In this document: positions 50,280 to 52,161 of the stretch, in pieces
Layout: every line of letters begins with the position of its first letter
Position numbering within the stretch: position 1 is the first letter of the stretch
Assembly: GCF_045037415.1 (NCBI RefSeq)
Contig: NZ_CP173438.1
Length of the DNA: 64,000 bases
Direction: 5' to 3' (one strand)
Origin: Escherichia coli
GTDB taxonomy: Bacteria > Pseudomonadota > Gammaproteobacteria > Enterobacterales > Enterobacteriaceae
Program-made: the position numbers and the translations under genes
The notes under the pieces: model-generated
Databases searched by the model: none
What the model saw: the letters and a program-made list of their open reading frames with translations, nothing else
What the model was told of the DNA's origin: nothing

Positions 50280-52161
50280 ATTCGAAACCACTTTTGCAGA
50301 TCTGGGCCTGAAGGCTCCTATCCTTGAAGCCCTTAACGATCTGGGTTACGAAAAACCATCTCCAATTCAGGCAGAGTGTATTCCACATCTGCTGAATGGC
50401 CGCGACGTTCTGGGTATGGCCCAGACGGGGAGCGGAAAAACTGCAGCATTCTCTTTACCTCTGCTGCAGAATCTTGATCCTGAGCTGAAAGCACCACAGA
50501 TTCTGGTGCTGGCACCGACCCGCGAACTGGCGGTACAGGTTGCTGAAGCAATGACGGATTTCTCTAAACACATGCGCGGCGTAAACGTGGTTGCCCTGTA
50601 CGGCGGCCAACGTTATGACGTGCAATTACGCGCCCTGCGTCAGGGGCCGCAGATCGTTGTCGGTACACCGGGCCGTCTGCTGGACCACCTGAAACGTGGC
50701 ACTCTGGACCTCTCTAAACTGAGCGGTCTGGTTCTGGATGAAGCTGACGAAATGCTGCGCATGGGCTTCATCGAAGACGTTGAAACCATTATGGCGCAGA
50801 TCCCGGAAGGTCATCAGACCGCTCTGTTCTCTGCAACCATGCCGGAAGCGATTCGTCGCATTACCCGCCGCTTTATGAAAGAGCCGCAGGAAGTGCGCAT
50901 TCAGTCCAGCGTGACTACCCGTCCTGACATCAGCCAGAGCTACTGGACTGTCTGGGGTATGCGTAAAAACGAAGCACTGGTACGTTTCCTGGAAGCGGAA
51001 GATTTTGATGCGGCGATTATCTTCGTTCGTACCAAAAACGCGACTCTGGAAGTGGCAGAAGCTCTTGAGCGTAACGGCTACAACAGCGCCGCGCTGAACG
51101 GTGACATGAACCAGGCGCTGCGTGAGCAGACACTGGAACGCCTGAAAGATGGTCGTCTGGACATCCTGATTGCGACCGACGTTGCAGCCCGTGGCCTGGA
51201 CGTTGAGCGTATCAGCCTGGTGGTTAACTACGATATCCCGATGGATTCTGAGTCTTACGTTCACCGTATCGGTCGTACCGGTCGTGCAGGTCGTGCTGGT
51301 CGTGCACTGCTGTTCGTTGAGAACCGTGAGCGTCGTCTGCTGCGCAACATCGAACGCACCATGAAGCTGACCATTCCGGAAGTAGAACTGCCGAACGCAG
51401 AACTGCTGGGCAAACGTCGTCTGGAAAAATTTGCCGCTAAAGTACAGCAGCAGCTGGAAAGCAGCGATCTGGATCAATACCGTGCACTGCTGAGCAAAAT
51501 TCAGCCGACTGCCGAAGGTGAAGAGCTGGATCTCGAAACTCTGGCAGCCGCACTACTGAAAATGGCACAGGGTGAACGTACTCTGATTGTTCCGCCAGAT
51601 GCGCCGATGCGTCCGAAACGTGAATTCCGTGACCGTGATGACCGTGGTCCGCGCGATCGTAACGACCGTGGCCCGCGTGGCGACCGTGAAGATCGTCCGC
51701 GTCGCGAACGTCGTGATGTTGGCGATATGCAGTTGTACCGTATTGAAGTGGGCCGCGATGATGGTGTTGAAGTTCGTCATATCGTTGGCGCGATTGCTAA
51801 CGAAGGCGACATCAGCAGCCGTTACATCGGTAACATCAAGCTGTTTGCTTCTCACTCCACCATCGAACTGCCGAAAGGTATGCCGGGTGAAGTGCTGCAA
51901 CACTTTACGCGTACTCGCATTCTCAACAAGCCAATGAACATGCAGTTACTGGGCGATGCACAGCCGCATACTGGCGGTGAGCGTCGTGGCGGTGGTCGTG
52001 GTTTCGGTGGCGAACGTCGTGAAGGCGGTCGTAACTTCAGCGGTGAACGCCGTGAAGGTGGCCGTGGTGATGGGCGTCGTTTTAGCGGCGAACGTCGTGA
52101 AGGCCGCGCACCGCGTCGTGATGACTCTACCGGTCGTCGTCGTTTCGGTGGTGATGCGTAA
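50272..52161 (+). CDS. deaD: Cold-shock DEAD-box RNA helicase DeaD (CsdA)
   Basis: ORF 50206-52161 trimmed to [21 protein letters not shown] (629 aa). Motifs [12 protein letters not shown] (LDEADEM), SAT and [10 protein letters not shown], plus an Arg/Gly-rich repeated C-terminal tail. Confidence 0.95.

Follow-up and report, generated by a model that had tools for sequence, protein, structure and literature searches.

Two arginine-rich stretches at the 3′ end of a bacterial helicase gene raise the question of whether they form a single repetitive RNA-binding tail, and of what such low-complexity sequence is for. The gene is deaD (also csdA) of Escherichia coli, whose 3′ end occupies positions 51600–52161 of the stretch of DNA analysed here (64,000 nucleotides (nt), referred to as the window; all coordinates are positions in this 64-kb window, and features are on the plus strand unless marked). 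The original prediction for this interval was of an Arg/Asp-rich and an Arg/Gly-rich set of tandem repeats, together making up an RGG-like tail that follows the helicase core. We consider it likely that the region past residue 443 of DeaD comprises two disordered Arg-rich low-complexity segments flanking a folded domain that resembles the RNA recognition motif (RRM), the first segment acting as a tether and the second as a non-specific RNA-binding tail, with insertions and deletions (indels) mediated by its repeats.

Domain architecture of the C-terminal region

Pfam identifies five domains in DeaD: DEAD at amino acids (aa) 30–196, Helicase_C at aa 232–340, DeaD_dimer at aa 374–443, DbpA at aa 489–558 and DeaD_C at aa 568–629. 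The dimerisation domain ends exactly at the start of the interval 51600–52161, which therefore opens at residue 444. It follows that the Arg/Asp-rich stretch does not come directly after the helicase core, as had been proposed, because the dimerisation domain intervenes. Nor do the two Arg-rich stretches constitute one continuous tail: they are separated by a folded RNA-binding domain of about 80 residues (aa 481–564). The coordinates of all features are collected in Table 1.

The solved structures of this exact protein are Protein Data Bank (PDB) entries 5GJU (aa 6–210), 5GI4 (aa 218–445) and 5B88 (aa 481–564, corresponding to nt 51712–51963), and there are no others. The 5B88 construct is identical to the window's protein over aa 482–564. 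Residues 446–480 and the C-terminal tail lie outside every solved DeaD construct. [quoted passage not shown] In the alignment of relatives, gaps are confined to the linker and the tail, and the dimerisation and RNA-binding domains are almost gap-free. Both the linker and the tail are thus predicted to be intrinsically disordered. The tail is recognised by Pfam PF12343 (DeaD_C, “DeaD helicase C-terminal disordered region”; aa 568–629, nt 51973–52158, E 9.2e-12), matching all 62 positions of the model (1–62/62), and is a typical member of that family, from which it shows no difference. The composition of aa 559–629 is 30% Gly and 27% Arg, with a net charge of +7.

The protein has a dimerisation domain after the second RecA-like domain and an RRM-like domain after a flexible linker, which is the layout of the dimeric Hera/CshA/CsdA subfamily. 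A stable dimer in solution has been reported both for CsdA and for CsdA 1–443 (PMC11850223, PMC3814787). The latter is the soluble truncation CsdA-delta, from which everything from residue 444 onwards has been removed (PMC3814787).

Table 1. Coordinates of deaD, its C-terminal segments and the associated repeats in the 64-kb window
Feature	Coordinates	Strand	Description and evidence
deaD/csdA coding sequence	50272..52161	+	629 aa plus stop; cold-shock DEAD-box RNA helicase; open reading frame (ORF) listing, Pfam, NCBIfam, RefSeq
Dimerisation domain, aa 374–443	51391..51600	+	Pfam PF25399 DeaD_dimer, E 2.6e-17; PDB 5GI4 (aa 218–445), sequence identical
Arg/Asp-rich mixed-charge linker, aa 444–488	51601..51735	+	33% Arg, 20% Asp; between dimerisation and RNA-binding domains
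Two-copy 24-nt (8-aa) unit, DRGPRDRN (aa 457–464) / DRGPRGDR (aa 465–472)	51640..51687	+	Direct repeat family D2
Folded RRM-like RNA-binding domain, Pfam DbpA, aa 489–558	51736..51945	+	PF03880, E 3e-20; between the two low-complexity stretches
Gly/Arg/Glu-rich disordered C-terminal tail, aa 565–629	51964..52158	+	Composition, Pfam, AlphaFold2 (disorder predicted)
Four imperfect GERR(E)GG(R) units	51976..52119	+	Tandem Repeats Finder, direct repeats, shuffles, degenerate 17-mer
Unit U1	51976–52008	+	11 aa
Unit U2	52009–52041	+	11 aa
Unit U3	52042–52086	+	15 aa
Unit U4	52087–52119	+	11 aa
18-nt exact repeat GGCGAACGTCGTGAAGGC, first copy	52009..52026	+	Forms the junction of the −78 nt allele
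18-nt exact repeat GGCGAACGTCGTGAAGGC, second copy	52087..52104	+	78 nt downstream of the first
Conserved tail end, aa 613–629	52108..52158	+	APRRDD unit; RRR(FG)(G)DA ending common across Enterobacterales
Intrinsic-terminator-like hairpin and T-run	52204..52235	+	43 nt past the deaD stop; 9 pairs, 6 of them G-C

The GERR repeat in the tail

Both peptides quoted in the original prediction are encoded exactly, a 29-residue string at aa 454–482 (nt 51631–51717) and a 49-residue string ending in GRAPRR at aa 568–616 (nt 51973–52119). The second contains GERR four times, at aa 569, 580, 591 and 606 (nt 51976, 52009, 52042 and 52087), with spacings of 11, 11 and 15 residues. Tandem Repeats Finder detects a repeat here (51974–52068, period 33, 2.9 copies, 70% matches, score 99), as had been anticipated. 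A degenerate 17-mer covering the four units, GGYGARCGYCGTGRMGG, has four matches, all of them in the tail, and none in 100 dinucleotide shuffles of the window. When the residues of the tail were shuffled, GERR occurred four times in 410 of 20,000 shuffles (2%) and GERREG three times in 56 of 20,000 (0.3%). The positions, the 17-mer and the shuffles therefore bear out four imperfect copies of a GERR-type unit. The repeat goes beyond what composition alone provides, not dramatically so within one sequence, and its conservation in relatives adds weight.

The nucleotide motif originally proposed for the units, GGTGAACG(T/C)CGTGAAGG, has one exact match; two more copies match only with one mismatch, because they begin with GGC. 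The description of the tail as RGG-like was similarly correct in part. It holds for composition and fails on the formal definition reportedly given by Thandapani and colleagues in 2013, in which tri- and di-RGG are said to be RGG repeats 0–4 residues apart. A regular-expression scan of the whole protein found no tri-RGG, di-RGG or tri-RG, and only two di-RG matches, at aa 466 (RGPRG, in the linker) and aa 572 (RGGGRG, the only one in the tail).

We then considered whether the DNA carries a repeat over and above that of the protein. At positions where the four units have the same residue, the codon is identical in 23 of 39 cases; 22.4 are expected from the codon usage of the gene, in which Arg is nearly always written CGT and Gly either GGT or GGC, so that the expectation is high. 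No exact DNA repeat is longer than the 18-nt sequence GGCGAACGTCGTGAAGGC, a length that was reached in 22% of synonymous-codon resamplings. The DNA repeat is therefore the protein repeat plus codon bias, and nothing more. Codon identity at the level of chance implies that the units are old and are kept at the protein level, rather than being recent duplications or the products of concerted evolution. A search of positions 50000–52400 against Rfam gave no match, and so the repeats show no sign of being part of a known structured RNA.

Two further reading frames are open through the whole tail, one at 51956–52171 (plus strand, +1 frame relative to deaD, 71 aa) and one at 51852–52184 (minus strand, 110 aa). 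Both are open because of the CGT/GGT/GAA codon set. A consequence of the open +1 frame is that frameshifts in the tail yield a Val-rich tail of similar length, not a truncation. Such frameshifted Val-rich tails are found in many database proteins; most of these are singletons derived from assemblies of raw reads, and they may reflect errors in sequencing or assembly.

The Arg/Asp-rich linker

The Arg/Asp-rich stretch does not behave as a tandem repeat, as it had been described. Six occurrences of DR were obtained in 43% of shuffles and two of DRGP in 50%, and the Tandem Repeats Finder score is only 31. It owes its appearance mostly to compositional bias, with one 8-residue duplication in addition.

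The charge of the linker is more regular than its sequence. Among Enterobacterales the variable core of the linker is 22–35 aa long and has a net charge of +1 in 32 of 40 sequences; the standard deviation of the net charge is 0.51, compared to 4.2 under a null model based on composition only (with no control for relatedness). When linkers are defined by their anchors, the net charge is +3 in 41 of 52 close relatives. Linker indels seem to come as charge-neutral pieces. An invariant net charge was considered as a general rule and rejected: in the wider family the values range from −2 to +11, and the regularity holds only in close relatives.

Length variation among E. coli strains

Length variation within the species was surveyed by searching 5,426 complete E. 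coli genomes with three equal queries of 156 nt, placed on the GERR tract, the linker and the RNA-binding domain. For the GERR tract, 178 genomes matched at below 95% identity, 25 at below 80% coverage, and two extra genomes had no match, giving approximately 205 variants (3.8%). The linker gave five, six and none in the same classes, or approximately 11 variants (0.2%). For the RNA-binding domain all three classes were empty, and there is no length variant of this domain in 5,425 E. coli genomes. The suggestion that the tail is a likely site of strain-to-strain indels is thus upheld, with approximately 205 of 5,425 genomes varying in the GERR tract. Variants are nevertheless infrequent: one allele is dominant, and approximately 96% of E. 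coli genomes share one tail length.

Four length alleles were characterised. A +12 nt allele, which duplicates REGG, is carried by 166–185 genomes (about 3%), strains 042 and PCN033 among them, and seems to be confined to particular lineages. The range comes from identity bands on a 168-nt allele query; a 66-nt query over the junction left the alleles unseparated, BLAST having joined two pieces in wild-type genomes. A −78 nt allele, which removes 26 aa from U2 to U4, is present in 21 genomes as counted with a 35-nt junction query, each side of which is shorter than the 28-nt word size. A −132 nt allele, lacking 44 aa and all four units, occurs in one genome, and its breakpoints share GCGTCGTG. 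In the linker, a −24 nt allele in E. coli F1053 has lost exactly one copy of DRGPRDRN, in frame. All of the alleles examined keep the reading frame, and their breakpoints fall in repeats.

The −78 nt allele joins the two exact 18-nt repeats. Six of its carriers were compared over 2 kb, and at least four flanking haplotypes were found. One carrier, 1403KP, is the same as the window at all 2,027 flanking positions, while the other three haplotypes differ from the window by approximately 70–79 substitutions and from one another by 16–36. The presence of the same deletion on at least four haplotypes makes it most likely that it arose several times, and we conclude that this deletion is probably recurrent.

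Outside the length alleles, the protein sequence of the tail is conserved. A comparison of the tract in O157:H7 with the window gives six synonymous changes and one non-synonymous change, and the tract is under purifying selection within E. coli. The sole amino acid change in the tail of O157:H7 (strain PA20) is G579S (near 52006), which converts GFGGERR to GFSGERR and makes unit 1 closer to units 2–4 (F-S-GERR).

Variation between taxa

The set of homologues consists mostly of gene fragments, and sequences were kept only if they had an intact C-terminus without a frameshift. Among Enterobacterales this left 45 distinct tails, whose named sources include Klebsiella, Enterobacter, Kosakonia, Pantoea, Mixta, Yersinia, Serratia, Hafnia, Ewingella and Edwardsiella. 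Their lengths range from 61 to 93 aa (median 76) and the number of ERR units from 0 to 6, so that the expected variation in enterobacterial deaD 3′ ends is indeed seen between genera. Their composition is confined to 22–30% Arg and 12–20% acidic residues, with a net charge of +6 to +9. The APRRDD(A/S) unit, which is single in E. coli, is doubled in Klebsiella and several other relatives. Within the tail, conservation is highest at the RRR(FG)(G)DA ending.

A wider scan of the family covered 1.84 billion representative proteins. Tails are basic in every lineage, with a median net charge of +7 to +10, and linkers are of mixed charge nearly everywhere (Arg/Lys with Asp/Glu). Two or more ERR units are present in 51 of 61 tails where the identity of the RNA-binding domain is at least 85%, in three of 27 at 60–85% identity, and in none of 95 below 60%. 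In distant tails Lys largely takes the place of Arg. Since basic tails are found everywhere and ERR units only in close relatives, the GERR repeat is the enterobacterial version of a general basic disordered tail. Between genera both segments drift in length and sequence, and composition and net positive charge are kept.

Gene identity and genomic context

The window codes for a standard member of the DeaD/CsdA orthologue group, and the gene call of the original prediction is correct. The protein scores 1397.5 bits against the equivalog NCBIfam NF008642 (cut-off 989), with aa 1–629 aligned to positions 1–628/628 of the profile. An 841-nt query over the region matches 5,425 of the 5,426 complete E. 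coli genomes, always on a deaD annotated in RefSeq, and several strains are 100% identical. The C-terminal 253 aligned residues are identical to those of the K-12 protein; at the DNA level the identity to K-12 is approximately 97.3% over the 841 nt, and the differences are synonymous only. One of the 5,426 genomes has no match to the region, and in one this part of deaD is present a second time, on a plasmid.

The gene is flanked upstream by an nlpI-like ORF (49208–50092) and downstream by an mtr ORF (52315–53559), the same neighbours as in K-12, and RefSeq annotates deaD and mtr at matching places. In the mechanically derived ORF the start is a TTG that lies 66 nt further upstream than the annotated ATG (50206–50271), which would give 651 aa; the ATG at 50272 is supported as the start because the alignment to the NCBIfam profile begins with residue 1 of the 629-aa protein. 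The strong hairpin downstream of the stop codon is probably the deaD terminator, and was scored on the minus strand as well. Tandem Repeats Finder also reports a 9-nt period at 51265–51306 (GGTCGTACC/GGTCGTGCA). This codes for part of the conserved helicase motif VI, and is therefore a protein motif and not a repeat of the kind considered here.

Proposed function and alternatives

Published measurements place the main RNA anchor of CsdA in the folded domain between the two stretches: the affinity for RNA is 0.07 μM for the full-length protein, 28 μM for the dimeric core and approximately 1 μM for the isolated RNA-binding domain (PMC11850223). C-terminal tails, including that of CsdA, have been called critical for RNA binding (PMC10193013), and ATP-independent annealing has been proposed to reside in the basic C-terminal domain (PMC3590231). 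CsdA 1–443 retains ATPase activity, still dimerises and is more soluble than the full-length protein, which aggregates more (PMC3814787). Purified DeaD undergoes salt-dependent phase separation in vitro, and DeaD forms foci (PMC12758526).

The mechanism that we propose is inferred from such studies of CsdA, Hera, CshA, Mss116p/CYT-19 and Dbp2. As a flexible, well-solvated tether, the linker would allow the dimeric core to act on nearby duplexes with the RNA-binding domain anchored on RNA. The basic tail would add non-specific electrostatic contacts to RNA, which could raise affinity and favour strand annealing, and its multivalency probably contributes to the self-association of full-length DeaD and to its condensates. 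The indels may arise by replication slippage or by short-homology recombination between repeats, and we propose that they are tolerated because bulk charge and length, and not exact sequence, matter for function.

An alternative is that the tail mainly docks proteins or autoinhibits, with RNase E (in the cold-shock degradosome), RraA or ribosomal particles as the possible partners; the APRRDD...RRRFGGDA end would then be a short linear motif, and the GERR units a spacer. In its favour, the last 17 or so residues are better conserved across Enterobacterales than is the number of repeats. There is also a precedent in RhlB, where an unstructured extension at the C-terminus binds RraA, and in the cold CsdA can become part of the degradosome (PMC3814787). 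However, CsdA-delta (1–443) still shifted with RraA (PMC3814787), and no CsdA partner has been mapped to aa 565–629 in the literature searched. Moreover, distant homologues lose the terminal motif and keep the basic character, which fits a bulk electrostatic role better than a motif, and we regard docking as unlikely to be the main function.

Two other explanations concern the repeats themselves. They could be a neutral low-complexity appendage, a slippage-prone gene end that is tolerated and takes its composition from mutation and codon bias. The wide variation between genera in repeat number and tail length would be expected of such sequence, as would the viability of isolates carrying the −26 aa and −44 aa alleles and the retention of ATPase by CsdA 1–443 (PMC3814787). 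What makes this highly improbable is the constraint on the tail: the single length shared by about 96% of the 5,425 E. coli genomes, the excess of synonymous changes (six to one), the net charge and composition held over large sequence divergence, a region conserved enough to define a Pfam family, and inter-unit codon identity at random expectation, from which it follows that the repeats are old and are preserved as protein sequence. The GERR tract could also be a contingency (phase-variable) locus that switches DeaD function on and off, given that a deletion probably recurs at one site, that the +1 frame is open through the tail, and that many database proteins have frameshifted Val-rich tails. 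We find this scarcely credible, because the repeats are imperfect (70% matches at the 33-nt period, and no exact repeat longer than 18 nt) and because all alleles examined in annotated genomes are in-frame; variant frequency is moreover low, with one allele dominant, and the frameshifted entries are mostly the singletons noted above.

Several points weigh against our preferred reading of a disordered tether and a non-specific RNA-binding tail. The literature searched does not separate a contribution of aa 565–629 from that of the RNA-binding domain, and contains no tail-only construct that we could find. A tail with one RGG, no di- or tri-RGG and 17% acidic residues should bind RNA more weakly than classical RGG boxes do. 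The existence of clinical isolates without 26 or 44 of the tail residues means that the GERR units are not needed for viability. In the linker, charges are better mixed than random in 49 of 52 sequences, yet no single sequence is significant (z ~1; sequence charge decoration). Finally, the occurrence of the −78 nt deletion on several haplotypes could reflect recombination that spread a single event, although this is less parsimonious.

Comparison with known systems

Hera from Thermus thermophilus and CshA from Geobacillus, Bacillus and Staphylococcus share with DeaD the order of core, dimerisation domain, flexible linker, RRM-like domain and basic tail, and the RNA-binding domain likewise serves as the chief anchor on RNA (PMC11850223). 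They differ in that GERR(E)GG units occur only in close relatives of E. coli DeaD, the tails of distant members being Lys-rich. In eukaryotes, RGG/RG (glycine/arginine-rich, GAR) boxes flank the DEAD-box proteins LAF-1 and Dbp2/DDX5. The DeaD tail is like these boxes in composition and in its probable role as an Arg/Gly-rich disordered flank of a helicase core; unlike them, it has GERR/EGGR units, is 17% acidic, and has only one di-RG (RGGGRG). To our knowledge, no arginine-methylation system is known in E. coli. Arg/Gly-rich disordered flanks of helicases bind RNA non-specifically, help annealing and favour condensates (PMC10193013).

Mss116p and CYT-19 have basic C-terminal tails, and E. coli RhlB and RhlE have C-terminal extensions, that are, like the DeaD tail, unstructured and positively charged. 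Extensions of this type tether the core non-specifically to large RNAs (PMC3814787, PMC11260450). These four proteins have neither the dimerisation domain nor the RRM-like domain, whereas in DeaD the tail follows a specific RNA-binding domain.

Significance

Earlier work has already described this protein together with its domain layout and disordered C-terminal region, and the tail has its own Pfam family. The observation from which this work began stands up for the GERR tail and is weak for the Arg/Asp “repeats”; its anatomy was incomplete, and its interpretation was broadly right. To this the analysis adds a corrected anatomy, with two low-complexity segments around a folded RNA-binding domain, and a census in which length changes, though rare, cluster in the GERR tract. 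It also provides a clean example of an apparently recurrent deletion between 18-nt direct repeats, and two alleles found in nature, −26 aa and −44 aa, that could be used as they stand as mutants of the tail. In both segments it is net charge, and not sequence, that is conserved (for the linker, among close relatives).

It is conceivable, but in our judgement very unlikely, that the length of the GERR tract is a natural tuning knob, in which the apparently recurrent −26 aa allele, the +4 aa allele and the charge-balanced linker together set the level of RNA binding, annealing or condensation. If this were so, it would imply heritable differences between strains in cold adaptation, in ribosome assembly or in antibiotic persistence linked to DeaD condensates.

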